Shown one piece after another: positions 7,972 to 44,889 of a stretch of 64,000 nucleotides of DNA. The notes below the pieces were generated by a model, which was not told the origin of the DNA, did not search any database, and saw only the letters and a program-made list of their open reading frames with translations. The position numbers and the translations under genes are program-made. Source of the DNA: Deltaproteobacteria bacterium (lineage in GTDB: Bacteria > Myxococcota_A > JAADFL01); the NCBI GenBank assembly GCA_013152945.1, contig JAADFL010000193.1:1991-65990 (forward strand), written 5' to 3'. The first letter of the stretch is position 1; the number at the start of each line of letters is the position of its first letter.

Positions 7972-7975
7972 GATA

Positions 7976-12276: not shown

Positions 12277-12935
12277 TTTCCGGTCTTTGTTCGCCCCCTG
12301 GAATCCTTCTTTCCGGCTCTTGTTTCCCTCTTGGCATCTTTCTTTTCGTCTTTTCGATCCTGGAAAAGATCGAGGACATAGGAAACAAAATCCTTTTCCG
12401 CCTGTATGTGTCTCTTTGCAAACTCGTAGATCATGGAAACACCCAGCAAATCCTTCCCCTGTTCAAGAATTCCGGTCCGCTCGTCGAGCCCATGGATGCG
12501 TTTCAAACCACTGATTGATTCCTCCACTGCCTCAATCGATTTAAGGCGCCTTTTGAGCCCCAGCACACGCTGGTTCATGGATGTCTTGGACAGGTTTGCA
12601 AGAGCGACAAGGAAAGGGTTCCTCAACGGCTTCATTTCCGAGAGCAGGTCCACGATACTTACAGACAATGCAGAGAGCCCTTTCTCGTTTATCTCGTGTA
12701 TCTTACGGGTCGCCCCCTGTCCCTCGTGCTCGAAGCGGGTCGTTATCAACTCCTTGTCTTCGAGGGTTTTCAACACCCTGTAGATCGAGGAGAAGCTGAT
12801 GTCCGTCCACTCGGTGAGTCTTCTTTCCCTAATCTTCTCTTCCAGGCTATAGGCGTGAATCGGACCCTCGGAGATGAGACCGAGTATTACGATTTCCTTT
12901 TCAGACAAAGGTTCCTTTCCAGCCATTGAAACCAT
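12273..12935 (-). CDS. PadR-family transcriptional regulator with an extended C-terminal domain, first gene of the efflux operon.
   Basis: 220-aa ORF. LGLISEGPIHAYSL...IYRVLKTLEDKELI is the PadR winged-HTH signature. Translationally coupled to the MFP gene. Confidence 0.7.
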   Translation of the reverse strand: MVSMAGKEPLSEKEIVILGLISEGPIHAYSLEEKIRERRLTEWTDISFSSIYRVLKTLEDKELITTRFEHEGQGATRKIHEINEKGLSALSVSIVDLLSEMKPLRNPFLVALANLSKTSMNQRVLGLKRRLKSIEAVEESISGLKRIHGLDERTGILEQGKDLLGVSMIYEFAKRHIQAEKDFVSYVLDLFQDRKDEKKDAKRETRAGKKDSRGRTKTGK

Positions 12936-14048: not shown

Positions 14049-14152
14049 ACATCACCATAACGCGCCATGTCACGTTGACAACCACTGCCAGCCAGTCTAT
14101 TTATAATTCGGCTCACGCTTTGTCGGGATTGGCCCGGCAGTGAGGAGATTGT

Positions 14153-16602: not shown

Positions 16603-16603
16603 A

Positions 16604-17359
16604 ATGTCTGCCTGGTTATTTCTTCATTCGGTCATGTTCCTGGCAACTTCGGCCAATGCCGGCGACTTTACCGTAAATCCCGGAACAGTCCAGGTCGGAC
16701 TATTTTTCAACGGCGCCGATATTAGGGTCACGGCCGAGGTCCCGGCAGGCACAGGCGTAGCCGTGGAGATAAGCGGCCGTGAAAACCCGGTCAACCTGAA
16801 AAAAAAGGGCAAAGTCTTGGGCCTGCTGTGGATGAACGTAGGCGATGTAAAAATAGAACATGCACCGGAATCCTATCTGCTCGAGTCATCTTCAGAACTA
16901 AACAAGCTTGCTCAAACAGACGAATTGATTCGCCTGGACATGGGAAGACCCGGCTTGCACGACAAGTTATTGGCAAACGGAGAACCAGCAGACAAAGCCT
17001 TGTTCAGGGAATTTTTCAAACTCAAAGCTTCCGGGGGACTGTATGCCATACATCAGGGCCGGTTGAATCTTGAAAAGACGAAAAATCCTTCCATGGAAAA
17101 AGTAACGGCAATATTTCACTTGCCTGCGAAGATACCGCTCGGCAATCACCAAATCCGTGTAATCGATTTCAATAACGGGCACGGCGAGGTAATATATTCC
17201 GGATCACTTGCGGTCGAAAAGGTCGGTCTTGCTCGATGGATAACCCATGTCGCGTATAATCACGGCCTCTTGTATGGTATCAGCGCCGTTGTAATTGCCC
17301 TGATAGTGGGGCTGATTACGGGTTACCTTTTCAGCCTGGGCTCCAAGGGCGCCCACTAG
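16604..17359 (+). CDS. Exported hypothetical protein with N-terminal signal peptide and C-terminal TM anchor.
   Basis: The track ORF starts at 16529. The ATG at 16604 follows the TauE stop by 1 nt, has a GGGGAGG RBS, and gives MSAWLFLHSVMFLATSANA (signal peptide). The C-terminus AVVIALIVGLITGYLF is a TM helix. Resembles DUF81-associated periplasmic partners. I cannot name the family with confidence. Confidence 0.5.
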   Translation: MSAWLFLHSVMFLATSANAGDFTVNPGTVQVGLFFNGADIRVTAEVPAGTGVAVEISGRENPVNLKKKGKVLGLLWMNVGDVKIEHAPESYLLESSSELNKLAQTDELIRLDMGRPGLHDKLLANGEPADKALFREFFKLKASGGLYAIHQGRLNLEKTKNPSMEKVTAIFHLPAKIPLGNHQIRVIDFNNGHGEVIYSGSLAVEKVGLARWITHVAYNHGLLYGISAVVIALIVGLITGYLFSLGSKGAH

Positions 17360-17371
17360 GACGAGTTTGAT

Positions 17372-19927: not shown

Positions 19928-19957
19928 GGACCTGTTAAGGTGGTGTTGGAGGAAAAA

Positions 19958-20347
19958 ATGGGAAAATCCGGCAGAGTCCTTGTCCTGGACGATGAAAAGA
20001 TAGTATGCGACAGGTTGACCGAGCATTTTTCCAAAAAGGGACTTGAAGTGGAAGCGTTCACGGATAGTCAACAGGCGATAGACCGTATTGCGAGTCAGGA
20101 CTTTGACGTGATCATTACCGACTTGAAGATGAAAGGCCCGACCGGTATGGATGTAGTCCACTTCGTGCGCCGAAACCGGCCGGGCGCCGAGCTGATAGTA
20201 ATAACCGGATACGCCTCGATCGATACTGCCAGAGAGGCCGAGTACTCGGGTGTGTACAAATTCATCACCAAGCCTTTCAAGATGAACAACCTGGCCAAAT
20301 CAGTGATGAAAGCCGTACACAAGGCACAAACCAGAAAAGGCAGGTAA
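19958..20347 (+). CDS. Stand-alone response-regulator receiver (CheY-like) protein.
   Basis: The track ORF starts at GTG 19940. The ATG at 19958 has a GGAGG RBS 6 nt upstream. VLVLDDE, phospho-acceptor in VIITDLKM, T/S in ITGYAS, K in ITKPF. No output domain. Confidence 0.8.
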   Translation: MGKSGRVLVLDDEKIVCDRLTEHFSKKGLEVEAFTDSQQAIDRIASQDFDVIITDLKMKGPTGMDVVHFVRRNRPGAELIVITGYASIDTAREAEYSGVYKFITKPFKMNNLAKSVMKAVHKAQTRKGR

Positions 20348-29624: not shown

Positions 29625-31379
29625 TTACCTGTTCCGGCTTGAACCCTGTTCATCCTTTGCCCCGGATATCTCGAGCCCCCGCATCCGCAGGTGACCGAGA
29701 AAGGCCCTGGAAAGTGAGATCCAGTCCAGACCGGCCGTCTTTTCGGCCAATGTCCTGCCTCTTTCTTCCAGGTCTCTCGCGTCACTCAACAACCGGACAA
29801 TCGCATCCCTGAATCCTTTAGTGTCTCCTGCCCGAACTATTACCGCCGCATCAGGCACGTACTGGGCCGAGAAAGGAACGAGGTGAGATGTCACAAGCGG
29901 AGTGCCCACGGCAGCAGCCTGTGCAGCAGACATTCCAAAGCCCTCCATTTCAGAAGCAGTCACGAACAAATCGGCAAGGCTGAACATGGGATATAGATAA
30001 TGATCCGGAATAAAGCCCAGGAGAAAAGCCTTTCCCATAAGTCTCGAATCCTTGCGGATCTTATCCTCGAGTTGTTTGAAAATTTCTTTTTCCGGCCCTC
30101 CTCCAATGAAAAGAAACGTTCCATCGAGTTCTTCCGAAGCCATGGCAAAGGCATCCAACAACAAGTCCTTGCGCTTGGTTCTATCCATCCTGCTCGTCTC
30201 GAAGATGATTTTCGCTTTCTTCAGTTCATCTACATGCACACCGCTCTTTTCAGCCAGATAATCGTACACAGGAGCCAATTCACCCGGGCTGTATTTCCTG
30301 AACTTTTTTCTATCCACTCCCGGAGGAAAGAAAAACATCTTGCCGGGATCGACTCCAAGCCCGGTCCGAAGGCGTTCCGCAATCTCGGTACTTGTAGCCA
30401 CAAAGGCTCTTGCCGTGTTGCATACTGCAATTTCGTGGTTCCGGCGCTCGCAGAACTTCAAGGCCCTCTTGACATCAAGGGGCCTGTCCTTGAAATTTTC
30501 TTCCTTCAGCAATCCCAGGGAATGAGGGGTAAACACATGCCGGGACACTGCGGCCAGGGCCTTCCGCCGGTTGCCGTCCTTGTCCCAGAGGGAAAGGATC
30601 TTCCGTCCCACTGTTTCAGCCTCGACCAGTGTAGCCGTTACGGGTCCCAGGCCCTTCGAATTCCTTTCGAATTCCTCCATTGCCTGTTTACCGTGATTTC
30701 CTATGGGTTCATTCCTCTTCTCGCACCATAATCTTACTGCCCCGCCTACCCGCTCCACTGGCTTCAGAGTCGGGTCTACCGCAGCCAGGCAGCATTTTCC
30801 CGCCAGTAATTCAAGGGAGGTCGCCGCGCCGGACCAGTGCCCCTTCATCTCGAAATCCCGCAGTGTTTCCTCCAAGGCCACTCCCTCGACCGCCTTTCGA
30901 AGCAATCCCAATGCCTCCCGGGCCATCCATCTAACTTCAAGGAGCATTCCGATCACACCGGCATCCCAATAGTGAGTATTCCAAATCTCGTAAACCTGGT
31001 GGGGCTTGCATGACAGTTCAGCCGCTTCCTTACTCACGAAATCTTCAATCCAGTCCACTTCCTCATCAAGGGCCACGGCTATATCCTCTTTCCTGATAAA
31101 CTTGTCCCCGCCGCCCGGCACGTATACATACCTCGCATTATCTCCAAAGGGCTCAATACCCTCCCTGACTTTTTCCAATCCGAAAAACGGGAATCCGCCG
31201 CGTGCAAATATGCTTACATGGAACCCCAACTGAACCAGGGCCTGCGCCATCGAGTTCACGTACATGTTCTGCCCGCCGGTGTCAGGGGCCCCACCCACCG
31301 GGACAATGACTCCTCCGTACCCATGGTTGGTTATCAGGGCGATCCTCGGCCGGTTGAAAAATGATTCCTGCACGCTCAT
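29625..31379 (-). CDS. GT4-family glycosyltransferase with an inserted domain, resembling sucrose-phosphate-synthase-type enzymes.
   Basis: The track ORF starts at TTG 31409. The ATG at 31379 has a GGAGG RBS. The N-terminal motif GGAPDTGGQNMYV is like the DTGGQ of SPS/sucrose synthase. The C-terminal GT4 Rossmann domain (EGFGMSAAQAAAVGTPLV) carries the E-x7-E-type motif. Confidence 0.7.
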   Translation of the reverse strand: MSVQESFFNRPRIALITNHGYGGVIVPVGGAPDTGGQNMYVNSMAQALVQLGFHVSIFARGGFPFFGLEKVREGIEPFGDNARYVYVPGGGDKFIRKEDIAVALDEEVDWIEDFVSKEAAELSCKPHQVYEIWNTHYWDAGVIGMLLEVRWMAREALGLLRKAVEGVALEETLRDFEMKGHWSGAATSLELLAGKCCLAAVDPTLKPVERVGGAVRLWCEKRNEPIGNHGKQAMEEFERNSKGLGPVTATLVEAETVGRKILSLWDKDGNRRKALAAVSRHVFTPHSLGLLKEENFKDRPLDVKRALKFCERRNHEIAVCNTARAFVATSTEIAERLRTGLGVDPGKMFFFPPGVDRKKFRKYSPGELAPVYDYLAEKSGVHVDELKKAKIIFETSRMDRTKRKDLLLDAFAMASEELDGTFLFIGGGPEKEIFKQLEDKIRKDSRLMGKAFLLGFIPDHYLYPMFSLADLFVTASEMEGFGMSAAQAAAVGTPLVTSHLVPFSAQYVPDAAVIVRAGDTKGFRDAIVRLLSDARDLEERGRTLAEKTAGLDWISLSRAFLGHLRMRGLEISGAKDEQGSSRNR

Positions 31380-31478
31380 CACAATGCCTCCATTTTTACT
31401 CTTCGACAAAATAAATATATTTTAAACCTATTGCCGCCGGATTTGCGAAAAAATAGAAGCCTTAAATAAAATTTTTAT

Positions 31479-33377
31479 TCATCGCCAGTCCAGGGCCTTG
31501 GCCTGTGACTTCAGCAAAGAACTGCCCGGCAAATAATGCATGCCCCTTTCAAGGATATCCTTTGCACCGGCCATATCTCCCCTACCGGCCCTTGCATGGG
31601 CCCATGAAGACCACAAGGCAGGATCCCCCGGCGTTATTGAAGCGGCCTTTTCGTAACAGCGTTCCGAGTCCTGTATCCGGCCGGTCAAAAAGTAGGCAAA
31701 AGCCAGATTTCTCCAGGCCTCGGAAAAACCAGGGGCCGCCTTCACAGCGTCATGGAAGTACCTGATCGCCTCTGATGTTCTCTGCTGCATGGCAAGGGCA
31801 AGGCCCAAGCCGTTCAGGGCCCTGGCAGACCTGGGACGAAAATGCAGGACGGCCTTCAACTCTTCTTCCGCATCCGCAGGTCTTCTCAGCCCCAGGTACG
31901 CAAGTCCCGAGTTCAACACGGCCTCGATGAAAGCCGGCCTTTTCCTTCTCGCTTTCAATGATAGTTCAAGGGCCTGTGCATATTTACCGGACCTAAGCTT
32001 CAAGGCCGCCAGGTTGTTCATTACTTCCGGATCATCCGGAGATCTTTCAATTGCCTGGTTTAAAAGCTTTTCCGCTTCCCTCATCTTGCCTTTACGATAG
32101 AGATATTCAGCAAGATTGCTCCGGGCGAGCACGCTGTCGGGCTGACTTTCAAGGACTTTTTCCCACAGTGTTCCTGAATTCTTCCAACAGCCTGAAATGG
32201 ACATGCTGTATCCGCCGAGTGCCCCGACCAGCGCCAGGCCGGCAACAATCGCAGATTTTCCGGCATAAACATTCTTTCTATAGGCGAATTCTTCAAACCT
32301 GACCGCCGGACCCGCCACGGCCAAGAACAGCCCTATGCCCGGTAAGTATAAGTACCTGTCGGCGATGACACCGTACCGCATATAAGAACTTGCGACCCAT
32401 CCAAGTAAGGGAGCAATTGTCAATACGTACCAGGCTGTTCCGAAAATTTCCGGCGAGCGGGCATGTTTCTTGAATAGATAAATAAAGGATACTGCGAAAA
32501 ACAATACAATACCAAGCGCAAGCCAACCAATCGGGCCTGACGGATCCTTCGGCAAAGGATGAATGGGCGCCGTCAATGTCGGCAACAGAACCATCATTGG
32601 ATAGGTTAAAAGGGAACGCGCCGCAAGCAGGAACCTGTCGATTAATCCCATTGAGGCGACCACGGAGCCGGTCGAACCCAGGTTTTTCTCCACGGCAAGT
32701 GTTACCATGCCCAGGCCAAAGGCGATTGCCAACAACCCTGAAATTGCGGCCAGCGTCTTCTTTTGAATCAACCCGCGGCCCTGGAACGCATCCATGAAAA
32801 GGAAAACCAAAGGCAAGGTAACCGTTATGGTTTTGGACAACAGTGATAGGCAATAAAGCAGGTATAAAAGGACAAGCAGGCCGATCTTTCCACTCTTTCG
32901 CCAGGAAATCCAGGCCATGGAGGCTCCAAGTGCTCCTGCCGTGGCCAGCAGAGTCTTTTGCTCGGCCACCCACGCAATCGTCTCGACCTGTACCGGGTGT
33001 ACAGCGAACAAGGCTGTTGCGAGCCAGGCCGGTTTCAATGGCAGGCCGAGCCAGGCAAGCAAGTAGAACAATAGTATGACATTGAGCAGGTGCAATAGTA
33101 TGCTGATGGCGTGATATGCTGATGGATTGTCACCAAATGCCTTTTTTTCCAGATAATGAAACGTGTACGTGAGCGGGTAATAATTCGGCGCATCAAGGGT
33201 GAACCAGATATCGTGCAGCCCGTGCTCGGACTTTAACAGCGGATTGTCATAGACGTACAGGTCATCGTCCCAGTTGACGAAATCATTACCAAGTATTCGC
33301 AAGTAAGGGACTACGGAAAGAAAGACGAGCGTAAGAACAATTGCGAACCTGGCTTTACCGGTCGTCAAAATCCTCAC
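31479..33377 (-). CDS. Polytopic membrane protein (about 11 TM) with a C-terminal TPR domain, a putative GT-C-fold glycosyltransferase (PMT_2/TMTC-like).
   Basis: 632-aa ORF. The acidic motif NWDDDLYVYDNPLL in the first periplasmic loop is in the DD/DE position typical of GT-C enzymes. The C-terminal 230 aa contain 5-6 TPRs. Confidence 0.5.
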   Translation of the reverse strand: MRILTTGKARFAIVLTLVFLSVVPYLRILGNDFVNWDDDLYVYDNPLLKSEHGLHDIWFTLDAPNYYPLTYTFHYLEKKAFGDNPSAYHAISILLHLLNVILLFYLLAWLGLPLKPAWLATALFAVHPVQVETIAWVAEQKTLLATAGALGASMAWISWRKSGKIGLLVLLYLLYCLSLLSKTITVTLPLVFLFMDAFQGRGLIQKKTLAAISGLLAIAFGLGMVTLAVEKNLGSTGSVVASMGLIDRFLLAARSLLTYPMMVLLPTLTAPIHPLPKDPSGPIGWLALGIVLFFAVSFIYLFKKHARSPEIFGTAWYVLTIAPLLGWVASSYMRYGVIADRYLYLPGIGLFLAVAGPAVRFEEFAYRKNVYAGKSAIVAGLALVGALGGYSMSISGCWKNSGTLWEKVLESQPDSVLARSNLAEYLYRKGKMREAEKLLNQAIERSPDDPEVMNNLAALKLRSGKYAQALELSLKARRKRPAFIEAVLNSGLAYLGLRRPADAEEELKAVLHFRPRSARALNGLGLALAMQQRTSEAIRYFHDAVKAAPGFSEAWRNLAFAYFLTGRIQDSERCYEKAASITPGDPALWSSWAHARAGRGDMAGAKDILERGMHYLPGSSLLKSQAKALDWR

Positions 33378-33787
33378 TGGTCCAGGAGTTCCAGTTCCCA
33401 GGTTATCTTTGCCGTCTTTGCCAACATAGCCGACACACCGCAGAACCTCCCCTCGGAAAGTTCGATGGCCCTCACTATCTTGGGCTTGAAATCTTCATGC
33501 GCCCTAATGCGATAAGTGATTCTTATTTCCTTGAACACCCTGGGATGAGAATTGTTCTGCCTTGCTTTGACATGTACTGAAAAATCGGAAAAAGGAATTT
33601 TCTGCTTTTCGAGCATGAATACTACGTCCATGCCTGTACAGCCTGCCAATCCATGCAGCACGAGTTGCTTTGGACTCGGCCAGACTCCCAATCCACCGAC
33701 ATCCCTTGCTCCGTCCATGAATATTCGAGCCTCGTTTGGACCTGAAAAGAAGCGCAGTGAACTATCGTATTCGACTCTGGCCTCCAC
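33374..33787 (-). CDS. OsmC/Ohr-family peroxiredoxin-like protein.
   Basis: 137-aa ORF. GLAGCTGMDVV contains the conserved Cys of the OsmC fold. 4-nt overlap with the downstream gene. Confidence 0.65.
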   Translation of the reverse strand: MEARVEYDSSLRFFSGPNEARIFMDGARDVGGLGVWPSPKQLVLHGLAGCTGMDVVFMLEKQKIPFSDFSVHVKARQNNSHPRVFKEIRITYRIRAHEDFKPKIVRAIELSEGRFCGVSAMLAKTAKITWELELLDQ

Positions 33788-33790
33788 ACT

Positions 33791-34528
33791 TCACTCCTCT
33801 CCCCATATTGAAGTCGTATGCAACTCCGATATCGCCGTATCATCGAACTGGCCCTTGTACACCTTACGTATGAACATTACTCCCACGTACATCGTGCGCT
33901 CGGTCATGGCCAATTCCTCCAACTTGACGCTCAACTTCTTTCGAACCGTTCGCGGCTTATCCTTGAAATACACTACCGTCCTGCCCATCCACTTGAATTT
34001 GGGTTCGATTTTATCCGTTCGAGTATTTCTTACAATCTTTACCAGGTAAACATCTACATAGACCTTTCTCGGCCGGTTGAAATTACTGAATTGCTCCTTG
34101 CCCGCGCCCGGGGTAATCTCTATATGCGTTGTGCCTTCAGGCAGATAGAATGCAATCCACTCATTCTTACCCCACCCCTTGGCGCCTTCAGCCCAAAAAG
34201 TATCCGGATTCCGGTCAAGAAGCTTGTCCACTCCGTAATATTCCTCGCCCCTTCCCTTTTCCACCAATGTTGACGAAGCTATGGGCACCCGCTCATCCTC
34301 AGCCAGCTTTTTCATGGCATCTATGAGGGCTTCCTTCTTGATTATCCTGGAAATATTGTTGAACGGGTCTTTCTTCTTCTTTTTCTGCACATGCTTGTGC
34401 TTATGTCTCTTTGATCTCGCAAGAGTTGTTCCTGCCGGAACGACAAAGAATGCAGCAAGAAAAAAGCACAACATTTTGACTTTTGAACTGTCGAACTTCA
34501 TTATTCTCTCCTGGACCTGCATGTTCAA
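33791..34528 (-). CDS. Exported hypothetical protein with a polybasic N-region (RSKRHKHKHVQKKKKKD) and a discoidin/jelly-roll-like domain.
   Basis: 245-aa ORF. Hydrophobic signal MLCFFLAAFFVVPAGTTLA. NPDTFWAEGAKGWGKNEWIAFYL resembles F5/8-type C / carbohydrate-binding beta-sandwich motifs. Confidence 0.35.
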   Translation of the reverse strand: MNMQVQERIMKFDSSKVKMLCFFLAAFFVVPAGTTLARSKRHKHKHVQKKKKKDPFNNISRIIKKEALIDAMKKLAEDERVPIASSTLVEKGRGEEYYGVDKLLDRNPDTFWAEGAKGWGKNEWIAFYLPEGTTHIEITPGAGKEQFSNFNRPRKVYVDVYLVKIVRNTRTDKIEPKFKWMGRTVVYFKDKPRTVRKKLSVKLEELAMTERTMYVGVMFIRKVYKGQFDDTAISELHTTSIWGEE

Positions 34529-34796: not shown

Positions 34797-36272
34797 ATGG
34801 GGCATGGATGCCTTGGAGAAAGGTGCTCTATTAGGCCGGAGGACTCGCACTTGAAAAAGACCAGAGGTCACAAACTTGGTGATATCCTGCGGGAAGGGGA
34901 AGTAGCAGATTCTTCCGGCATTGAAAAAGGCCTAAAGTATCAAAGAAAAACCGGCGAAAGAATTGCCAGTTCCCTTCTCTTCCTTGGCCTTGCATCCGAA
35001 AGAGACCTTGCCGAAAGTTTGGGAACACAAAAAGGGGTGCCTGCGGTCGTATTGGGAGAATCCGCGATAGAACTCGAGGTCATTGCAACAATACCTTACA
35101 AGGTGTCCAAGCAACAGCTCATACTTCCCCTGAAAATAACAGAGGCTAATATTTTCCTGGCAATGGCCGATCCCGACGATTTAAAAACCGCGGCGGAAGT
35201 TGAATTTGTATCCGGTAAGAAAGTTATACCTCACGTAGCCTTGGCCGGACAATTGAGACGCTTCATAGAATCTGCAAGAAAAAAGAGAACCTCGAACCCG
35301 AAAGCCAAGTTGTTGATTGGAGAAACATTACTCGAACAAGGTTCTCCCGGTAATGCCTCTTTCGGCCAGAAATTGGCCGTTATTAAGCCCACAACCGGGT
35401 GGGAACCGGCTCTGGATGAGGCGTGGGATAACATGGAGCCAATGGATGCAGGCTTACGCGAGCCCATGGATATATTACCCAGCGAGAGTGAGGCAAAAAA
35501 AAACAGTCCTTCGCCCAAGCATATTCTGATTGTAGATGATGATCCCGATATACTTGAAATGATGTCCAAATACATCGAACACAAAGGCTTCAAAGTTGAG
35601 AAGGCGGAAAACGGAACCAAGGCGCTTGCAAAGATAAGAAACAATAAACCCGGATTATTGATACTGGATGCCATGCTTCCGGGCATTCATGGATTCGAGA
35701 TTTGTCGTAAAATCAAGGACAGCAAGCGCTACTCGTCAGTGCCGGTCATCATGATAAGCGCGGTGTACAAAGGTTGGCGGTACAGCGAAGACGTGCGACA
35801 AACCTACGGGGCCGACGACTACCTGGAAAAGCCCTTCCCCTTGGAAAAATTGTATGGCAAACTAAAACAATTCTTGAGTACCAAGAAAGAGATGGTTTCA
35901 GATGAGTCTCTTGTCAACGATGCGGAGACCGCACTGAAGGAGGGACTGCAAGCCCAGGGGAGAGGTGAAATTGATACAGCGATAGCCAAATTCAAAGAAG
36001 GAATTGCAATAGATCCCATGTCGCATCAACTTCATTTCCACCTTGCGAATCTTCTTGCGGCGCAAGAAAACTATTTCATGGCAATTGGTGAATTGGAAAG
36101 GGCTGTTGAATTGGAACCCAGGTTTTTTACTGCGTTGAAAGGTTTGGCGGTATTATATCAGAAAAAAGGATTGCTCAGGAAATCAATCGAGATGTGGGAG
36201 CGAGCGTTATACACGGCGCCTGATGACAAGACCAGGGATAAGATCAGGACTCATCTCTTCCAATTGTTATAG
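34797..36272 (+). CDS. MshEN (T2SSE_N-type c-di-GMP-binding) domain, then REC receiver, then TPR.
   Basis: 491-aa ORF. Two tandem 24-residue MshEN motifs are read directly: KLGDILREGEVADSSGIEKGLKYQ and RIASSLLFLGLASERDLAESLGTQ (LGxxLxxxGxVxxxxIxxxLxxQ). The receiver (ILIVDDDPD, LLILDAML, MISAV, YLEKPF) is intact. The C-terminus has 3-4 TPRs. Confidence 0.75.
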   Translation: MGHGCLGERCSIRPEDSHLKKTRGHKLGDILREGEVADSSGIEKGLKYQRKTGERIASSLLFLGLASERDLAESLGTQKGVPAVVLGESAIELEVIATIPYKVSKQQLILPLKITEANIFLAMADPDDLKTAAEVEFVSGKKVIPHVALAGQLRRFIESARKKRTSNPKAKLLIGETLLEQGSPGNASFGQKLAVIKPTTGWEPALDEAWDNMEPMDAGLREPMDILPSESEAKKNSPSPKHILIVDDDPDILEMMSKYIEHKGFKVEKAENGTKALAKIRNNKPGLLILDAMLPGIHGFEICRKIKDSKRYSSVPVIMISAVYKGWRYSEDVRQTYGADDYLEKPFPLEKLYGKLKQFLSTKKEMVSDESLVNDAETALKEGLQAQGRGEIDTAIAKFKEGIAIDPMSHQLHFHLANLLAAQENYFMAIGELERAVELEPRFFTALKGLAVLYQKKGLLRKSIEMWERALYTAPDDKTRDKIRTHLFQLL

Positions 36273-36325
36273 GCTCCGGTTGAAACTTGAGGCTCTGATG
36301 TGCAACTTTAGACGACGAGGTACCG

Positions 36326-38011
36326 ATGCGTTTTATCTGTGAAAAGTGCCATACCAAGTATTCAATCGCCGATGAAAAGGTTCGGGGCAAGGTTCTCAAG
36401 ATACGTTGCAAGAAATGTCACAATATTATCGTGGTTCGCGAACCCGCTTCCAAGGCTAAATCAGCATTAAAGAAAAAAGATCAACTTGACGAAGAATTCG
36501 AACGGGCCTTTGACCGATTGACCGGAAAATCAGGGATCGCCTCCCGGCCGGAGTCAAAGGCAGCAAAGCAACAGTTGCGCGTTGCGCCCGACCTCAAAGA
36601 TGACGTTGATGCAGGAATAGAAGGTGAAGAGTGGTTCGCCATCCTCAGGGGCCGACAAATCGGCCCTATGAACCTTGATGAAGTGAAGCAGGCAATCAAA
36701 GACGAGCGAATATCGCACGGCACGTACCTATGGCGGGATGGGATGGCCGACTGGGTCCGAGCGGCCCGTTGCGATGAAATCAAGCCTCTCTTACCCGATA
36801 GACGCATACCCAAGGCCCAAAAACCGTCTGAAGTAAAATCCAAGCCTGAAAAGGAAAAAGCCGGGGAACCGGAAGAAGACAAAACCAGGATAGCATCTCC
36901 CGAGTTGGCTGCCGAACTTGCGCGGAAATTGGAAAGCCAGGCCCAGCCGGCCGAATCTCAGCCGGAAGAAACTCCAAGACATGGGGAGCCCGAAGTTTCG
37001 GATGAAAAGGCTGTCGAGCAAGAAGAAGTCGCTGACCGGATACAAGACCAAAAAGAGGAAATACCCGAGAGAAGAGCCAGCGAGGAACCTGGAATACCCC
37101 CGCCTATGCCCGATGAAGATGAAGAAATACTCATCGCACCGGCCATTACGGGCAAACTCATAACCCTCAAGGCAGCCATTGCAATGAGCATAGCCTCTGC
37201 CGTAATTGCCACAGTGGCTACGGCTCTCATAATCGAATTAACAAGGCCCAGGCCCCGGAATACTTCATCTAATGAAAATGCTCAACGGGTGACAAAGGTA
37301 AGCAAACGAAAAAAGATTATCCTGACGCCCGAGCTGCTTGCCCTCAAGAGTAAGCTGTTCGGTCAAGATGGTTCAAGAAGGAGCAGGAGGGGCAGGAGAT
37401 CCGGCAGCCGCCCCCAGAAAAAAACAGGCCACAATTTATCAATATCCAGTCCCACCATGGGTGATTCCAACGAAAAACCAAGTGCTGACCTTGCTGCGAC
37501 TTTCAAGAATGCCGGCATGGATCTCGACCAGGCAAGGGGTTCCAGGGGCACCGGCACTGCAACAGGAGGTGTGGCCATGGCTGCTTCGACCGCCGGTTCC
37601 CCGGAAGACGGCTTGGCTGATTTATCCAGGAAGCGGAGATCCGACGACACAGGCTCGGATGGCTTGGACCTCGGCTCTCGCCGGAAAAGGACCTCTCTTC
37701 GAGGGATGAACACCGCAGGCTTGCCCGAGGGACTACCCCCTGAAACGGTGGCATCCCACTTCCAGGGAATGTGGATAGAAACATGCTACAACAGGGCTTT
37801 AAAGAGAGATCCCTCCATGAAGGGAAAAATGATAGTCGAATTCGAGATACGAAATGACGGGAGGGTATATTCAGTCAGGATATCACCTTCCACTTTTTTG
37901 GGAACCTTCCTGGCAAAGTGCTTCAGCCGGGAAATAAAGAAGATTAGATTTCCGATGTTCAGGGGAGACCCGATTCCCATTGAATACCCGTTCCTCCTCT
38001 CCGCACATTAG
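36326..38011 (+). CDS. GltJ/AgmX-like protein: N-terminal MJ0042-type zinc ribbon, GYF_2 domain, charged/Pro-rich linker, single TM, C-terminal AgmX/PglI-type periplasmic domain.
   Basis: 561-aa ORF. CEKCHTKY...CKKCHN zinc ribbon. GEEWFAILRGRQIGPMNLDEVKQAIKDERISHGTYLWRDGMADW is a GYF_2/DUF4339 signature. TM helix AAIAMSIASAVIATVATALIIEL. This architecture matches Myxococcus GltJ (AgmX). Confidence 0.65.
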   Translation: MRFICEKCHTKYSIADEKVRGKVLKIRCKKCHNIIVVREPASKAKSALKKKDQLDEEFERAFDRLTGKSGIASRPESKAAKQQLRVAPDLKDDVDAGIEGEEWFAILRGRQIGPMNLDEVKQAIKDERISHGTYLWRDGMADWVRAARCDEIKPLLPDRRIPKAQKPSEVKSKPEKEKAGEPEEDKTRIASPELAAELARKLESQAQPAESQPEETPRHGEPEVSDEKAVEQEEVADRIQDQKEEIPERRASEEPGIPPPMPDEDEEILIAPAITGKLITLKAAIAMSIASAVIATVATALIIELTRPRPRNTSSNENAQRVTKVSKRKKIILTPELLALKSKLFGQDGSRRSRRGRRSGSRPQKKTGHNLSISSPTMGDSNEKPSADLAATFKNAGMDLDQARGSRGTGTATGGVAMAASTAGSPEDGLADLSRKRRSDDTGSDGLDLGSRRKRTSLRGMNTAGLPEGLPPETVASHFQGMWIETCYNRALKRDPSMKGKMIVEFEIRNDGRVYSVRISPSTFLGTFLAKCFSREIKKIRFPMFRGDPIPIEYPFLLSAH

Positions 38012-38055: not shown

Positions 38056-41000
38056 ATGGATCACGAAAAGGCTATAGCTAACTACTGGAACATACTTGAA
38101 GCGGAACCGGCGAATCGTGAGGCGTTCGCTTCCCTTGAGAAGCTGTTGTTCAAACTGGGGCGATGGGAACAACTCATCTCCCTGTATGAAAAAACAGCCG
38201 GGGCCGTAGGCGGCCCAAAGGGCGCCCCCTTGATCCTGAAGGCCGGAATGATTTGGAACGCCAAGCTCAAGAGGCGGGAAAAGGCGGTCGAATGTTATAA
38301 GAAGACGCTGGAATTGGATCCGGACAATCTCTCGGCAATGGCTCACCTGAAGGAACATTATGCCGCTACAAAGCAGTGGAATGAATACGTAGGACTGCTG
38401 CGCGAGGAAGCCAAACAGGCGGAAAGCCCTGAAGAAAAGGGGGATTTGCTGTTCAGCATAGGCACTACTTACAGAGACAAGCTGGGAGAGCCCGGCAAGG
38501 CGATGAGTGCCTTCCAGGAGGCATTCAAGACTGATCCGAAGTGCACCAAGGCCATTAAGGCGGGAATGGAGATATATAAAAATCTCGGCCGCTGGAACAT
38601 GGTGGTCAAATTGTTGAACATCCAACTTCGCGTGCTGAAAGATGACCAGGAAAAGGCGGATGTTTATATGGAGATGGCTGAAATATATGCATCAAGGATG
38701 AGCCAAACCAATGATGCGATAGAATGCTATCAAAAGGTCCTGGAGCTGGCGCCCGGAAACATGAAGGCCTTGGAGGCAATGGGAAATTTGTACGCTTCCG
38801 GAGGAGCTGCCGCAGCTTTGGAGGGGACGGAGGCAACAGAGCCGACTTCTGTAACCCAGGCGCCTGGAGCTGCGGAAACTGCAGCCCATTACATATCCCT
38901 TGCGGAAATACAGATGCAGGAGCCCCCAAACCTTGAACAGGCCAGGGAACTCTGTGAAAAAGCTCTTGCAATCGAGCCCGGCAACAAGATGGCCGTCGAA
39001 ATACTCGAAGAAACTTTCCGCAAAGAAAAACGTTGGAACGATTTGGTTTTGTTTCTTGAAAAACAGGTCGATCTCACGCCGGATACCGATCGCAAGCTCG
39101 ACTTCCTTTCAAACCTGATAATCATTGCAGCCAGGGAAATGAAACGACCCAAGAAGGCAAGGGGATATATTGAACAGGCCATGGCGCTGGGCGCCGCAAA
39201 GGAAACATTATTCAGTCCTGTGCTGGAGGTGTATGAACGTTCGGGACGATTCACAGAATACCTGGACCTACTTAGTTTAAAGGTGCAATATTCCGAGGAT
39301 GTCGCAGAGAAAGCCGGGATACTCCTGGAGATGGGTGACCTATGGCGGGAACAGCTCAAGAATGAAGAAAAGGCCAATGAATTCTATCTACAAGTATTAG
39401 AAATCAATCCGGAAAATGAGCGTGCCCAAGAACTGCATGAACAATACTTGAGAGCAAGGGGAGATTGGGATGCCCTGATCGATGTCCTGTGCAAAAAAGC
39501 AGAAACAGCCGAAAGCGATGAAGAAAAGGCTTCACATTATGCCGAGGCCGCCAAGCTATTGACAACGGCCGAGGATTACCAGTACGCACCGGAGATAGCC
39601 TTGCCGAGGGCAATTGAATTTTGGGAAAAAGTCCTGGACCTGGATCCTTCAAACAAGGAAGCGCGTGTATCCCTGACAGACCTGTACAGGACGACCGGAA
39701 ATTATGAGAAATTCCTTGCTGTTCTTGAAAACAATATCGAGCTCGCAGAAACCGATGAGGATAAGATAGCTTCTTTGCGCGAAATTGCTGAAATCTGTTT
39801 CCAGGTCGTGGGCGATCACCAAAGAGCAATAGAGACTTACTCCAAGCTACTCGATATTCAGCCACATGACCCGGAAGCACTGGATGCAATGGCTCAATAC
39901 TACCGTGAAGCAGGTGAGTTCGAGGACTTGGCCCAGGTCCTCGATAGACGCAGAGCATCAATAAATGAGCCGGCCGAACTTTTGGCCTTGAATGAAGAGT
40001 TGGCATACATCTTCGTCCAACGGCTTGGTGACACTGAAAAGGCAATCGAGGCGTACAAGGAAATTCTTAAGCTCGACCCGGAAAACCTTGGCGCCTTGGG
40101 AGCCCTGGAAAAACTGTATTCAAGCAAAAATGATTGGCGGGGACTCTTCGAAGTATTCGCCAAGCAACGCGATCTTGCACGAGAGCCCGGCAGAAGGGCG
40201 GAAATATCAGCCAGGGCGGCAAGAATAGCCACAGAACATCCCGAAGAAACCGGTGCTGACTCGGATGCCATAACAGCCCTGTGGACAGAGGTCTTGGCGG
40301 TGAGGCCGGATGACAAGGATGCGCTTGCCGCTCTTGCCGATATATACCGGGAAGCCGGTGCGTGGGAAGAGTTCGTGGCCGACTTGATAAGCCTTGCCGG
40401 CACAACGGAGAAACCAGAGGAAAGAGCGAAAATAAGGCTCGCAGCAGCTGATGCAGCAAACGAAAAATTGGGAGACCCGGTCAAGGCACGCGAGTTGTAT
40501 AGACTCGTTCTCCAGGACAATCCTGCTGAAAAGAAAGCAATCGAAACTCTCCAAAGCCTTTCAGAGGCCGATGAGGACTGGGAAGGACTGGCAGAGGTTC
40601 TCGAAATGAAGGTATCCACCTCAGAGGAGGACGATTTTATCAAGCTTAACATGGAGCTTGCCGGTCTGTATGAAAACAAGCTGAATAAAACGGATGATGC
40701 CATAGGCGCTCTCAACAGGGTCCTGGACCTGGACCCGGGAAACCAGGGCGCGGTTGTCGAGTTGTCCCGTCTTCTTCAGGACTCGGAGCGCTGGGATGAA
40801 CTCACCGAGGTCCTGGATAAGCGACTGGACATGACCTCACAGATGGATGAACGCCTGGATATTCTGCGGGAACTGGCCGGAGTCAGGGAAAGAGAACTGG
40901 CCGATTACGGCGGAGCGGCATCCGCGTACGAACAAATATTGGAGATCGACCCCTCGGATCATGAAGCGACCGAGGCATTGGAGAGAATTTACCTGGAAGG

Positions 41001-44000
41001 CGGGGAATGGGAACAACTGATAAGGCTGTTCAACCGGAAGATTGAAGCAGCGGAAGATCCGGAAGATAAGAGTACATTACTTCTGCAAATGGCCGATATA
41101 TACGAGAACAAGATGGTCCGCAAAGACCTGGCTTTCGAAACTTACGCAAGGTTGTTCGAATTAGGCGTTTCCGACAGTGACACCTTGAGCGAATTGGAAA
41201 GGTTGGCCGGCGAGTTGAACCAGTGGGATCTGGCCAGGGTCCTGGAAATCGAGGCAGATCGTACTCAAGACAAAGAGAGCCAAGTCAAGCTGCTCTTCAG
41301 AGTGGCCGGGTTGGCAGTCGATAAACTGGAAAGTCCTGACAAGGCAATAGCAACGTACAAGAAAATACTTGAAATATCCCCGGCGGACCGGGAAGCCCAT
41401 AAGGCCGTTGTCCATCTGCTGAAGAAGGGGGGAGATTACACAGAATTGGCGCAAGCCCTCGACACCGAGGCGGATGCCCTGGAAGACGATCCGAATGAAC
41501 GCGCCGAAGTGCTGTTATCTCTGGCCTCTGTCTACGAAGAAAACCTGGATGATCTGGAAAGAGCGGTTCAAACCTATCGAAGGGTAATGGATATACAGCC
41601 TGGAAACAGGGATGCCCTTTCCGCGCTGTCCAGGATATACAACCAGGAAAAACGATGGCAAGAACTGGCTGAAGTCCTGGAGCAGGAAGTCGCTGCAACA
41701 AATGACATGGAACGCAAGGTTTCTCTTCATTACCAGATTGCAGGGTTGTGGGAAAGGGAACTCAACCAGCCGGAGAAATCAGTAGACAGTTACTTGGCAA
41801 TCCTGGATATCGACTCCTCGAACCTTCCTGCCCTAAAATCCCTGGAAAAGCTATACAACTCTCTCGAACGCTGGAAGGATCTGGCCCTCGTATACGTCAG
41901 GGAGGCCAACCTGTTCGATGAAGCCGACATCAAGATAGTCATGCTGTCAAAGGCTGCCAAAATTCTCGAGCACAAGGTATCGGACAGGCAAGAGGCTATT
42001 GAAATATTGAACAATATACTCGAGATCGATCCTGACAACCTGCCGGCCATAAGGGGTTTACAGAGGCTTTACTTCGATGAAGAGGACTGGGAACGACTTA
42101 TCGAGGTTTACGAACGCGAAATCCCACTCGAAGGAGATACGTCCAGGCAGGTGGCACTGTACCAGGCTATCGGCGAAATCTTTGAAATCAAGCTCGAACG
42201 GGCGGAAAAGGCTGTTGAAAGTTATGAAAAGATACTCGAACTCGCGGGAGAGCACAGACAAGCATTACAGGCGTTAAGCCGCATTTATGCCAAGCTCGAA
42301 GAATGGGAACGATGCGTACAGACCACAACGAGAGAGGCTGCACTGGCACCTGATACAAACACAGGTGCAGAGCTCAATATCAAGGTCGCCGAGATCTTCA
42401 GAGACAAGCTCGACGCCCCGGACAGGGCTCTCGAGCACTTCCAGCGAGCATTGGAACTCAATCCAACCGCATCAAAGGCCCTGGACGGAGCAGCGAATAT
42501 CCTCAGGAAGCAGCAACGATGGCAAGAACTCTACCAGCTAAAGAAAATAGAAGAAAAAACTTTACCCAGGGGAGAGGAACATGCGGCTGTCCTGTGCGAA
42601 ATAGCCAAGCTTGGAATGGAAAAACTGGGCATGGAGGACGAGGCGATAACCTGCTACAAGGACGCATTGGAATCGGTTACCGACTATCTTCCTGCAATGC
42701 TTCCCCTGGCCGAAATCTATTTTAACAGACAAAACTGGAAGGAAACGGCACCTCTGCTCGAAAGAATCGTCGAAGCGGAAAAGGACAGAACCGAACCATC
42801 CACACTCGCATCACTCAAGTACCGCCAAGGCTGGGCACTGGACCAACTCAACGATGGAGCCGAAGCCCGCAAGTGCTACGAGGACGCTATCTCCATGGCG
42901 CCCGACCTCCTTGAAGCGAGATCCTCGTTGGTCGAATTACTCCTGCGTGAAGATGATAAAGCCGCGGCTCTCCCTCACATGGAAGCAATAGCAAATTTAA
43001 AAATGGACTCTGTGGCTCCGGAAGAGGCGGCGGGGCTTTACTACAGGGTCGGAGCAATGGCGCAGGAGCTTGGAGAATCCGACAAGGCTATAGAGGCATT
43101 TGAAAAGGCCATTGACATCGACCGATCTCACCTGCCTTCCCTTGAAGCCTTGGCACAAGCTTATGAATCATCCGAAAGATGGGAAGATGCGGTCAAGGTT
43201 TCGGATGATCTGCTTCAAATAACCAAGGAAGCTGGACTACGGTCCAGGTTGCTCACGCGGGTGGGCACGATGCTCATGGACCGTCTGTCCGATCCGGCAA
43301 GTGCAGTTGCCAAGTTGGCAGAGGCGGCGGAGCTGGCACCTGAAGACATGGAGGTCCAGACGAAACTCCTCGAGGCGTACAAGACGGCAGGTATGTGGCA
43401 AGAAGCCGTGGAATACGTGTCCAGGCTCATTGAAGCGGAAGAAGATCCCAGGAGAACGGGAATACTGGAAGTATACCTGGGAGAACTCTACCGTGATGGA
43501 CTGGGCGACCAGGACAGGGCTGTCGAAGCATATTGTGAAGCATTGCGAAAGGATCCGGGCAACCAAGGTGCTCAACAAGCCCTTTTTACCTATCACGAAC
43601 AAGATGGCTCCTGGGAAAAATTGGCGGAACGTTTCAGGTCGATAGCCGATTCAATACCAGAGGAACGCATCGAGACAAAGGCCGACCTGGTAAAAGCCCT
43701 TGGAAAGCTTTACATAGAAAAACTTCAAGACCGCAACAAGGCAATCGAGACCCTGCGGGAGGCCGCGGAACTGGACAGGGAAGACATTGAAATTCACAAG
43801 GCCCTGGTAGAACTGTTTGGAGATGATGAAAACTATAAGGCCGAAGCAATCGACAGCCACAAGGCCCTGCTGCGCGGAGATCCTTTACGGGTTGACACCT
43901 ACCATCTCCTGGCCAAGACCTACCAGGAACGCGGGCAGGCGGACAAGGCATTCTGCGTATGTGCTGTTCTCAACTTCCTTAAGGAAACCACACCCGAGGA

Positions 44001-44889
44001 AAAGAAGTTCTATGACAAGCATAAGCTAAAGGTCAAAGAAGACTTCGAATCTCCTTTGGATGAAGATTTTCGGGAACACGTGCTCACGCACCCGGACGAG
44101 ATTGAACCTTTGTCCACAATCCTAACTACCTTGTCCCAGGTGGCTTCCAAGGTTTTTCCTCCAGACCTTGCATCTTATGGGATCGGCTCCGAGGAACCTC
44201 CTGACCGGGATGTTCCTCCCCAGTTGCTGAAGAACTTCAACTACGTAAGAAAAACTCTGAGGTTACCCGATATTGGGTTATATTCGAGGGATAGGCTGGC
44301 AAGCCTGGTAGCGGTTGAAACAACAGAGCCTCCGTCGATTATCGTTGACTATGCAAAGCTCAAGGGCAGGTTCAACAAGGAACAACGTTTTATCCTTGGA
44401 AGAGCCGTGGACTCCGCCCGTCCATCGCACATACTGGCCGCCAAACTGGGGTTGAACGGGCTCAAAGACGTGGCCCGCGCAACAGTGAAGATATTGTTTC
44501 CCGAGTACGGCCTGGCAGGAGATTATGACACTGACGAGGAACGGGAAACCATCATGGCCAGAACATTGACAAGACGACTGCGCCGTTCCCTCCTTGAACC
44601 GGTCCGGGAATACGTTGTACGACAGGACGAGATAGAATGGGACCGGTACTTACAGGGTGTCATGCATTCTTCCAACAGGGCGGGTTTCATTCTTTGCGGC
44701 GACATAACCACGGCAGCCGGGGTCATCATCCGGGAATCTCCGGAACTCAAGAGAGTGTTGCTGAAGCAAAGGGAAGATTTCGAAAAGGTCTTTAGTCAAT
44801 CCCCGCAACTCAGGGAACTCGTGCTTTTCGCTGTTTCAGACGACTACTTCGAACTGAGGGAAAAGGCCGGAATAGCCATCAAGGGATAG
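38056..44889 (+). CDS. Giant TPR-repeat protein (2277 aa) with a non-TPR C-terminal domain of about 290 aa, a candidate GltI/AgmK-like gliding-motility scaffold.
   Basis: Single uninterrupted ORF. About 28 copies of a unit of about 72 residues (...AIE.Y..IL..DP.N..AL..L..LY...E.W.EL..VLE...). No signal peptide or TM, so cytoplasmic. In M. xanthus a very large TPR protein (AgmK/GltI) is encoded beside agmX/gltJ. Followed by the hairpin at 44942-44966. Confidence 0.7.
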   Translation: MDHEKAIANYWNILEAEPANREAFASLEKLLFKLGRWEQLISLYEKTAGAVGGPKGAPLILKAGMIWNAKLKRREKAVECYKKTLELDPDNLSAMAHLKEHYAATKQWNEYVGLLREEAKQAESPEEKGDLLFSIGTTYRDKLGEPGKAMSAFQEAFKTDPKCTKAIKAGMEIYKNLGRWNMVVKLLNIQLRVLKDDQEKADVYMEMAEIYASRMSQTNDAIECYQKVLELAPGNMKALEAMGNLYASGGAAAALEGTEATEPTSVTQAPGAAETAAHYISLAEIQMQEPPNLEQARELCEKALAIEPGNKMAVEILEETFRKEKRWNDLVLFLEKQVDLTPDTDRKLDFLSNLIIIAAREMKRPKKARGYIEQAMALGAAKETLFSPVLEVYERSGRFTEYLDLLSLKVQYSEDVAEKAGILLEMGDLWREQLKNEEKANEFYLQVLEINPENERAQELHEQYLRARGDWDALIDVLCKKAETAESDEEKASHYAEAAKLLTTAEDYQYAPEIALPRAIEFWEKVLDLDPSNKEARVSLTDLYRTTGNYEKFLAVLENNIELAETDEDKIASLREIAEICFQVVGDHQRAIETYSKLLDIQPHDPEALDAMAQYYREAGEFEDLAQVLDRRRASINEPAELLALNEELAYIFVQRLGDTEKAIEAYKEILKLDPENLGALGALEKLYSSKNDWRGLFEVFAKQRDLAREPGRRAEISARAARIATEHPEETGADSDAITALWTEVLAVRPDDKDALAALADIYREAGAWEEFVADLISLAGTTEKPEERAKIRLAAADAANEKLGDPVKARELYRLVLQDNPAEKKAIETLQSLSEADEDWEGLAEVLEMKVSTSEEDDFIKLNMELAGLYENKLNKTDDAIGALNRVLDLDPGNQGAVVELSRLLQDSERWDELTEVLDKRLDMTSQMDERLDILRELAGVRERELADYGGAASAYEQILEIDPSDHEATEALERIYLEGGEWEQLIRLFNRKIEAAEDPEDKSTLLLQMADIYENKMVRKDLAFETYARLFELGVSDSDTLSELERLAGELNQWDLARVLEIEADRTQDKESQVKLLFRVAGLAVDKLESPDKAIATYKKILEISPADREAHKAVVHLLKKGGDYTELAQALDTEADALEDDPNERAEVLLSLASVYEENLDDLERAVQTYRRVMDIQPGNRDALSALSRIYNQEKRWQELAEVLEQEVAATNDMERKVSLHYQIAGLWERELNQPEKSVDSYLAILDIDSSNLPALKSLEKLYNSLERWKDLALVYVREANLFDEADIKIVMLSKAAKILEHKVSDRQEAIEILNNILEIDPDNLPAIRGLQRLYFDEEDWERLIEVYEREIPLEGDTSRQVALYQAIGEIFEIKLERAEKAVESYEKILELAGEHRQALQALSRIYAKLEEWERCVQTTTREAALAPDTNTGAELNIKVAEIFRDKLDAPDRALEHFQRALELNPTASKALDGAANILRKQQRWQELYQLKKIEEKTLPRGEEHAAVLCEIAKLGMEKLGMEDEAITCYKDALESVTDYLPAMLPLAEIYFNRQNWKETAPLLERIVEAEKDRTEPSTLASLKYRQGWALDQLNDGAEARKCYEDAISMAPDLLEARSSLVELLLREDDKAAALPHMEAIANLKMDSVAPEEAAGLYYRVGAMAQELGESDKAIEAFEKAIDIDRSHLPSLEALAQAYESSERWEDAVKVSDDLLQITKEAGLRSRLLTRVGTMLMDRLSDPASAVAKLAEAAELAPEDMEVQTKLLEAYKTAGMWQEAVEYVSRLIEAEEDPRRTGILEVYLGELYRDGLGDQDRAVEAYCEALRKDPGNQGAQQALFTYHEQDGSWEKLAERFRSIADSIPEERIETKADLVKALGKLYIEKLQDRNKAIETLREAAELDREDIEIHKALVELFGDDENYKAEAIDSHKALLRGDPLRVDTYHLLAKTYQERGQADKAFCVCAVLNFLKETTPEEKKFYDKHKLKVKEDFESPLDEDFREHVLTHPDEIEPLSTILTTLSQVASKVFPPDLASYGIGSEEPPDRDVPPQLLKNFNYVRKTLRLPDIGLYSRDRLASLVAVETTEPPSIIVDYAKLKGRFNKEQRFILGRAVDSARPSHILAAKLGLNGLKDVARATVKILFPEYGLAGDYDTDEERETIMARTLTRRLRRSLLEPVREYVVRQDEIEWDRYLQGVMHSSNRAGFILCGDITTAAGVIIRESPELKRVLLKQREDFEKVFSQSPQLRELVLFAVSDDYFELREKAGIAIKG

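Follow-up and report, generated by a model that had tools for sequence, protein, structure and literature searches.

A myxobacterial family of MshEN-receiver-TPR orphan response regulators and its conserved pairing with a GltJ-family gene

Regulators that combine an input from cyclic di-GMP (c-di-GMP) with one from phosphorylation are already known, and they provide one of the two comparisons needed for the gene described here, a response regulator with MshEN, receiver (REC) and tetratricopeptide-repeat (TPR) domains that is encoded, immediately ahead of a gene for a GltJ-family membrane protein, in a 64-kb stretch of a Deltaproteobacteria bacterium genome (contig JAADFL010000193.1; “the window” below is the whole of this stretch of 64,000 nucleotides). 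PixA of Myxococcus xanthus is an orphan response regulator built from PilZ and REC domains (PMC8316039), and acts on the motility/polarity machinery through protein-protein interaction; Bd2402 of Bdellovibrio bacteriovorus is a response regulator made of REC and MshEN_N, and binds c-di-GMP at 0.4 µM. More generally, fusions of MshEN to REC, HD-GYP, CheA, cyclases and kinases were reported by Wang et al. (2016, PMC5013675), who found M. xanthus to have 22 MshEN proteins and gave the consensus of the MshEN motif as RLGxx(L/V/I)(L/V/I)xxG(L/V/I)(L/V/I)xxxxLxxxLxxQ. The same authors pointed out that the older T2SSE_N domain model corresponds mainly to the α/β part of the domain, MshEN_C, and that the four-helix MshEN_N part, which binds c-di-GMP, precedes it.

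The second comparison is with the Agl-Glt gliding machine of M. xanthus, which GltJ joins to its cytoplasmic platform (PMC11135422). The GYF domain of GltJ binds a Pro-rich segment of AglZ, itself a receiver-domain protein, while the GltJ linker binds MglA-GTP and the zinc ribbon (ZnR) is the switch (PMC11135422); for GltI, a TPR protein of 3,822 residues, binding to this GYF domain is predicted (PMC11761067). Proteins with a ZnR-GYF arrangement elsewhere probably act as switches as well, their ligands being unknown (PMC11135422).

The two genes with which this article is chiefly concerned are as follows, all coordinates being those of the window:

34797..36272, + strand: regulator open reading frame (ORF; MshEN-REC-TPR), 491 residues counted from the ATG at 34797; 473 residues from the TTG at 34851 more likely
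36326..38011, + strand: partner gene, encoding a GltJ-family protein of 561 residues, 53 bp 3' of the regulator (gap 36273-36325)

What is new here is the conserved pairing of these genes, more than the domain fusion in the first of them. In a comparison of 80 loci from different species (the best 80 of the 427 species-level genomes described below), tblastn showed the partner gene to lie immediately 3' of the regulator, and in its orientation, in about 77; the gap between the two has a median of 58 bp (interquartile range 25-130). Independent gene calls bear out the pair in L081 and L083, and with Pfam it was confirmed in loci that include a Polyangiales chromosome of 9 Mb. When all the window neighbours were compared with these loci by tblastn and the flanking ORFs were clustered (the ORF caller being a crude one, which also produced antisense shadow ORFs in GC-rich loci), no broadly conserved neighbour other than the ZnR-GYF gene was found in the 80 loci; the commonest upstream genes (an NtrC-type regulator, Tgt and a TtcA-like gene) are clade-specific and apparently unrelated. 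A promoter and terminator scan of the window, which gave nothing decisive, found no terminator-like site on the + strand between regulator and partner. This pairing was computed directly, as were the domain architecture of the regulator, its intact phosphorylation site, its retention of most ligand residues, and the domains and topology of the partner. The initial annotation of the locus passed over this near-universal operon partner, which tells more than any other feature present.

The partner comprises a ZnR domain (residues 1-40), a GYF domain (101-160), a transmembrane helix (276-306, within a segment at 268-307 seen both by hydropathy and in the structural model), and a C-terminal TonB_C-like domain of AgmX/PglI type (472-558), the topology of the model agreeing with this domain order. 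Pfam recognises Zn_ribbon_4 and GYF_2, and NCBIfam recognises myxo_SS_tail (E 3e-19). For the N-terminal part the only significant sequence matches in the PDB are to GltJ/AgmX of M. xanthus itself, namely to its ZnR (7ZOK, E 2e-8) and its GYF domain (7Z3C, E 2e-7), while the C-terminal part matches TonB C-terminal domains and has their fold. The partner belongs to the GltJ family, though not necessarily as the ortholog of GltJ: its score of 109 bits falls short of the 450-bit cutoff of the NCBIfam equivalog model for GltJ, a point against reading the locus as a GltJ platform, and none of its homologs is named GltJ.

The initial annotation regarded the fusion in the regulator as unusual, a view that does not survive either the literature or the genome counts, since MshEN with REC was listed in 2016 and the complete MshEN-REC-TPR architecture occurs in 427 of 185,579 species-level genomes. 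There are 769 family matches at E ≤ 1e-5; each of the best 120 is full-length and has an identical set of Pfam domains (these 120 serve for the residue counts given below). In a 1.84-billion-protein library about 746 clusters at 50 % identity match at E ≤ 1e-30. The phyletic distribution is mostly over Polyangia/Myxococcota metagenome-assembled genomes (MAGs): the best 80 genomes are almost all MAGs labelled Polyangiales, Sandaracinaceae, ‘Myxococcales’ or ‘Deltaproteobacteria’. One locus with the regulator/partner pair (L053, CBDCVX010000011.1) carries the label Longimicrobiales (Gemmatimonadota), all the others being of Myxococcota type; this label could reflect either mis-binning or horizontal transfer. 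The regulator belongs to a large family of myxobacterial orphan response regulators that has gone unstudied: a literature search found no paper on the family, nor any joining MshEN and GYF (fig. S4 of the GltJ paper, which deals with ZnR-GYF operons, lay outside that search), and among the M. xanthus and Stigmatella MshEN sequences listed by Wang et al. none resembles the N-terminus of this family.

Within the regulator itself the following features can be distinguished:

34838..34843, + strand: Shine-Dalgarno sequence GGAGGA, read from the sequence, 7 nt 5' of TTG 34851 (8 nt counting GGAGG)
34872..34943, + strand: MshEN motif 1, residues 26-49, KLGDILREGEVADSSGIEKGLKYQ; G28, L46 and Q49 family-conserved, R32 and E35 deviating
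34959..35030, + strand: MshEN motif 2, residues 55-78, RIASSLLFLGLASERDLAESLGTQ; R55, G64, L71, L75 and Q78 conserved, A57 replacing the consensus Gly
35034..35336, + strand: MshEN_C, T2SSE_N-type α/β subdomain, residues about 80-180 (PF05157 at 80-163; model strands and helices over 90-180)
35337..35516, + strand: disordered linker, rich in Pro and acidic residues, residues about 181-240
35517..35879, + strand: receiver (REC), residues about 241-361, phospho-acceptor D291; from Pfam, NCBIfam, alignment and Foldseek
35901..36266, + strand: C-terminal TPR module, residues about 369-490; three TPRs and a leading helix, from Pfam and the model

The ORF list and translation give 491 residues from the ATG, but translation probably starts at the TTG, because the Shine-Dalgarno sequence stands just ahead of it and the start in the NCBI entry agrees (‘MAG: response regulator [Deltaproteobacteria bacterium]’, 473 residues, 100 % identical). 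Residues 1-23 are in any case unconserved in the family alignment, and in the AlphaFold model they have low confidence (predicted local distance difference test, pLDDT) and are disordered. This model, for which the input was a 29-sequence family alignment, has a mean pLDDT of 84.5 and exceeds 90 for 357 residues; all the folded parts are confident, and pLDDT falls below 50 over residues 185-237. In a Pfam scan extended to E up to 1 the regulator matched Response_reg at 243-356 (E 7e-26), MshEN (PF05157) at 80-163 (E 6e-14, 52.2 bits against a cutoff of 23.1 bits) and several TPR models within 380-480. Neither a T2SSE ATPase domain with Walker A/B motifs nor a DNA-binding domain, including a C-terminal winged helix (Trans_reg_C), was found in that scan. 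The assignment of MshEN, receiver and TPR without an ATPase, as first made from the sequence, was thus upheld by Pfam, by alignment to the PDB and by the model, with no other family claiming the N-terminus; the two 24-residue motifs picked out at that stage also proved exact, with a 5-residue spacer (RKTGE) between them. No hydrophobic segment was found in the regulator, and it is predicted to be cytoplasmic for that reason.

The Pfam match lies 3' of both motifs and covers only the MshEN_C/T2SSE_N part of the domain, as one would expect given that the old T2SSE_N model mainly spans MshEN_C. Because it leaves out both motifs, the motif region was examined separately. A phmmer search of the PDB aligned residues 19-167 of the regulator in register, over their whole length, with the MshEN domains of PilF (E 3e-16), of M. 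xanthus PilB (E 4e-13), of Geobacter PilB and of Vibrio cholerae MshE (5HTL, E 5e-10, residues 8-113 of the query onto residues 8-113 of MshE); the KLG of the regulator pairs with the RLG of PilF and of M. xanthus PilB. In the model the MshEN_N helices comprise residues 27-33, 39-52, 56-62 and 68-79; an α/β unit then extends to about residue 180, and Foldseek matches the model to c-di-GMP-bound MshE (5HTL_B) with E 9e-8 and 136/139 columns. To judge from both sequence and model, then, the N-terminus is a complete MshEN domain, with four-helix MshEN_N and MshEN_C, the likeness being far beyond chance; of the c-di-GMP receptor domain first proposed here, this bears out the fold. In common with MshE, PilB and PilF, the regulator has tandem 24-residue motifs separated by a 5-residue spacer, a four-helix bundle, and then a T2SSE_N-type α/β subdomain, but in those proteins an ATPase follows, whereas in the regulator there is none. 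Bd2402 resembles it in having a receiver and MshEN motifs without an ATPase, and so sets a precedent for phosphorylation and c-di-GMP inputs through MshEN, but differs in that REC comes first, that only MshEN_N is present, without MshEN_C or TPR, that its motifs are canonical, and that its genomic context is another one.

Given that the closest solved relatives of this N-terminus are the MshEN domains of PilF and PilB, including that of M. xanthus, it might be supposed that the protein, lacking an ATPase, serves as a decoy or regulator at the platform of a type IV pilus or a type II secretion system, where MshEN would compete with or mimic the N-terminus of PilB or GspE at PilM/PilC or GspL under the control of phosphorylation. 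However, the window contains no pil or gsp genes, nor are there any beside the regulator in other loci, where the ZnR-GYF-TonB_C gene alone is conserved, and such a role seems improbable.

Whether the domain binds c-di-GMP is a more delicate matter. Ten of the 12 positions that contact the ligand in MshE are kept across the family. In motif 1 these near-constant positions include Leu2 (Leu in 107/120 members and Ile in 13/120), Gly3 (120/120), Leu17 (117/120), Leu21 (119/120) and Gln24 (114/120), and in motif 2 they include Arg1 (115/120), Leu2 (116/120), Leu17 (105/120), Leu21 (120/120) and Gln24 (120/120); the regulator thus keeps most of the ligand-contact Leu and Gln residues of MshE, PilB and PilF, as well as the motif-1 Gly. 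The ligand site appears to have been maintained, because the Gln residues and Leu pairs of the two motifs are near-invariant and yet are lost in non-binders such as XpsE, which has G11V, L54H, L58C and Q61V. Nor would the Arg at position 1 be missed, as it is dispensable elsewhere: PilF GSPII-B, which has Lys and Leu there, binds at 6 nM, and a CheA-fused MshEN domain with Met at this position binds at 2.6 µM.

Several observations point the other way. Position 3 of motif 2, where Gly contacts guanine, is Ala in 106/120 members (A57 in the query), so that motif 2 of the family reads RLA or RIA in place of RLG. Position 1 of motif 1 is Gln, Pro or Lys family-wide, and not the Arg of MshE, PilB and PilF (K26 in the query), and position 10 of motif 1 is Lys or Arg in the family and E35 in the query, in which alone there is also an Arg at position 7 (R32); R32 and E35 occupy core and turn positions. 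The relaxed pattern with which Wang et al. made their genome counts consequently matches neither motif of the query, failing at positions 7 and 10 of motif 1 and at position 3 of motif 2, and matches only 6/120 relatives. Furthermore 47/120 relatives have Lys at the position of F48 (motif-2 position 11; Leu in the query), which recalls a Deinococcus domain that carries G40E and F48K and has lost binding. On the side of binding, again, the essential Gly of MshE is the one in motif 1, where G11L abolished detectable binding of c-di-GMP; with G40I in motif 2 the protein still bound at 36 µM, a 72-fold loss (Wang et al. 2016, PMC5013675).

These departures could be taken to mean that the receiver is the sole input, and that the MshEN domain has degenerated into a nucleotide-blind docking or tethering domain, much as the N1 domain of XpsE/GspE is a docking domain that binds GspL. 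Such an interpretation would account for the failure of the relaxed pattern in the query and 114/120 relatives and for the family-wide changes at motif-2 Gly3 and motif-1 positions 1 and 10, and there are documented non-binding MshEN domains with similar changes (XpsE, PilF GSPII-A, in which motif II is badly degraded, and ABF44566_III). It sits less well with the near-invariance of just those residues whose role is purely ligand-related, that is both terminal Gln, both Leu17/Leu21 pairs and the motif-1 Gly, which known non-binders such as XpsE have lost; and since MshE with G40I still binds, Ala at this position should be milder. On balance a purely phosphorylation-driven regulator of this kind is a serious alternative, albeit on the unlikely side, while from its sequence the family MshEN domain has a slightly better than even chance of binding c-di-GMP, with rather less certainty attaching to affinity and specificity.

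The specificity might indeed have shifted, in that the two half-sites diverge asymmetrically and do so consistently across the family. One half-site could have been re-tuned (Gln or Lys at motif-1 position 1, Ala at motif-2 position 3) for some other cyclic dinucleotide, for example 3',3'-cyclic GMP-AMP (cGAMP) from the Hypr-GGDEF enzymes of Myxococcota; MshEN shows weak but discernible binding of cGAMP (Wang et al. 2016, PMC5013675), and M. xanthus is reported to make this nucleotide (PMC8844925). Set against this, no GGDEF, EAL or other dinucleotide metabolism genes were found in the 64-kb window, and a receptor for another cyclic dinucleotide must be rated very improbable.

The receiver raises fewer difficulties. 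D247, D248, S321 and K345 are present in all of the 120 relatives and D291 in 119, Foldseek superimposes the domain on solved receivers with a TM score of about 0.9, and because the acidic pair, D291, S321 and K345 are all kept it would seem from the sequence to be built for phosphorylation. Residues 321-328 (35757-35781), at the β4/α4 junction and the start of helix α4, carry a family signature, S-A-[IV]-Y-[RK]-G-W-R, that is invariant; phosphorylation usually alters this surface in receivers, and it may be the output face. In the family alignment there is also hardly any variation in the last TPR, and together with the receiver signature this suggests conserved contacts.

The absence of an adjacent cognate kinase, already remarked on when the sequence was first read, holds good: the only histidine kinase in the window lies 19 kb off, and no kinase was found among the conserved neighbours in the 80 loci, so that the regulator is an orphan. 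That kinase (14153-15676, + strand; HAMP-HisKA-HATPase_c) has no adjacent response regulator and is an orphan itself; it is a possible partner for the regulator, if an unsupported one. PixA is alike in having an N-terminal c-di-GMP-binding domain, a phosphorylatable receiver and no adjacent kinase, and is unlike in having PilZ instead of MshEN, no TPR, and no GltJ-like gene beside it. The idea of a dual-input adaptor, put forward in the initial annotation, hence remains a reasonable one in so far as the phosphorylation site is intact and most c-di-GMP contacts are kept, but the nucleotide half of it is not secure, given the failure of the relaxed pattern and the Ala in place of the motif-2 Gly.

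Many homologs carry the automatic Joint Genome Institute (JGI) name ‘DNA-binding response OmpR family regulator’, and the receiver does score best against OmpR/PhoB-family receiver models in NCBIfam (the NCBIfam matches of the regulator being to the receiver only, and all far below cutoffs). An OmpR-type regulator that binds DNA is nevertheless ruled out with near certainty, since the domain scan finds neither a winged helix nor any other DNA-binding domain and the C-terminus consists of TPRs; the common automatic label is wrong for this family, and amounts to a systematic mis-annotation.

How, then, might regulator and partner work together? The relation to the gliding machine is one of functional analogy and not of membership. 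As in AglZ-GltJ-GltI, there is a soluble receiver protein that includes a disordered, Pro-rich stretch, there is a ZnR-linker-GYF-transmembrane-TonB_C protein, homologous in sequence to GltJ in its ZnR and GYF domains, and at this locus there is a giant cytoplasmic TPR protein. In the regulator, however, MshEN and TPR domains replace the coiled coil of AglZ, and the Pro-rich segment precedes the receiver. This segment varies from 63 to 116 residues across the family and has a median Pro content of 12.7 % (as against 4.2 % elsewhere) and 17.5 % Asp plus Glu. In many relatives it contains islands that may be docking motifs: an acidic D-[DE]-E-L patch, about 80 % of them keeping the Leu, and, within Polyangia, [DE]x[AP]FxSx[VM]xP[LM]P with a PLP motif.

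The proposal put forward here, because of the gene pairing and the analogy with the GltJ platform, is of a phosphorylation-gated and probably c-di-GMP-gated adaptor of the partner's membrane switch, the interaction itself being predicted only. The regulator, as a soluble cytoplasmic orphan response regulator, would be co-transcribed with its partner, which would be a bitopic inner-membrane protein having a cytoplasmic ZnR-linker-GYF switch, a single transmembrane helix and a periplasmic TonB_C-like domain. Docking on the cytoplasmic switch would take place through the linker, in the manner of the AglZ Pro-rich segment on the GltJ GYF domain, or through the TPR module, or both; an unlinked kinase would gate it by phosphorylating D291, and so, probably, would c-di-GMP on the MshEN four-helix bundle, and the outcome would be control over the partner's action across the envelope. 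Nucleotide binding, contact between the two proteins and the output are thus inferred, and the adaptor proposal as a whole is a tentative one, its probability lying a little short of even.

Some further observations count against it. The linker motifs are weakly conserved, the query itself having only degenerate versions and lacking the commonest ones; a ZnR-GYF protein occurs without the regulator upstream in Lujinxingia vulgaris; and, in line with the sub-cutoff score of the partner, no other glt, agl or mgl gene (mglAB included) was found in the 64-kb window. In Polyangia loci, too, the pair is not accompanied by the third gene of the present locus, which is

38056..44889, + strand: TPR giant, 2,277 residues, cytoplasmic, 44 bp 3' of the partner, with a non-TPR C-terminal region of about 400 residues

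so that this giant is part of the module in this clade only. The trio recurs in the nearest relative (L081, giant at 13370-20227), where identity amounts to 49 % for the regulator and, over 2,283 residues, to 63 % for the giant; as this latter figure exceeds those of both upstream genes, the giant appears to be the most constrained of the three. A homology search with its C-terminal 398 non-TPR residues returned nothing, not even the protein itself. In size and in its position beside a GltJ-like gene the giant resembles GltI/AgmK, and in this clade it would join the same unit as a GltI-like scaffold, but it has 2,277 residues as against 3,822 and the likeness need not mean homology to GltI. 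A bolder interpretation would make the trio a compact, previously unrecognised platform of focal-adhesion or gliding type, with the regulator in the place of AglZ, feeding c-di-GMP (or another cyclic dinucleotide) and phosphorylation into a ZnR-GYF switch across Polyangia-type Myxococcota; by analogy this is conceivable, though distinctly unlikely.

The remainder of the window may be dealt with briefly. Upstream of the regulator and divergent from it (29625-34528, - strand) lies a cluster encoding a glycosyltransferase of family 4 (GT4), a 632-residue protein whose N-terminal region is hydrophobic and apparently embedded in the membrane and which has TPRs at its C-terminus, an OsmC-like protein, and a 245-residue protein with an NADase-type glycan-binding (F5/8-like) domain; this cluster is not kept beside the regulator in other loci. 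At 57298-60651 (- strand) there is a protein of 1,117 residues that begins with a Ser/Thr protein kinase domain and also has a large region of WD40 β-propeller type, an architecture typical of Myxococcota signalling, and at 6517-12935 (- strand) an efflux operon of the resistance-nodulation-division (RND) type (outer-membrane factor, AcrB-type pump and membrane-fusion protein), preceded by a PadR-type regulator.

As to what the family means for its relatives, it provides a ready-made test of the extent to which drift in the MshEN motif (Gln or Lys for Arg, Ala for the second Gly) is compatible with binding, and if such drift is tolerated, genome counts of c-di-GMP receptors would be affected. 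The coupling to the partner would, if true, be of wider consequence, as no direct second-messenger input into GltJ-type transmembrane switches is known so far; the regulator, present in hundreds of genomes, would then be a concrete candidate ligand for the ZnR-GYF switches found outside Myxococcus.

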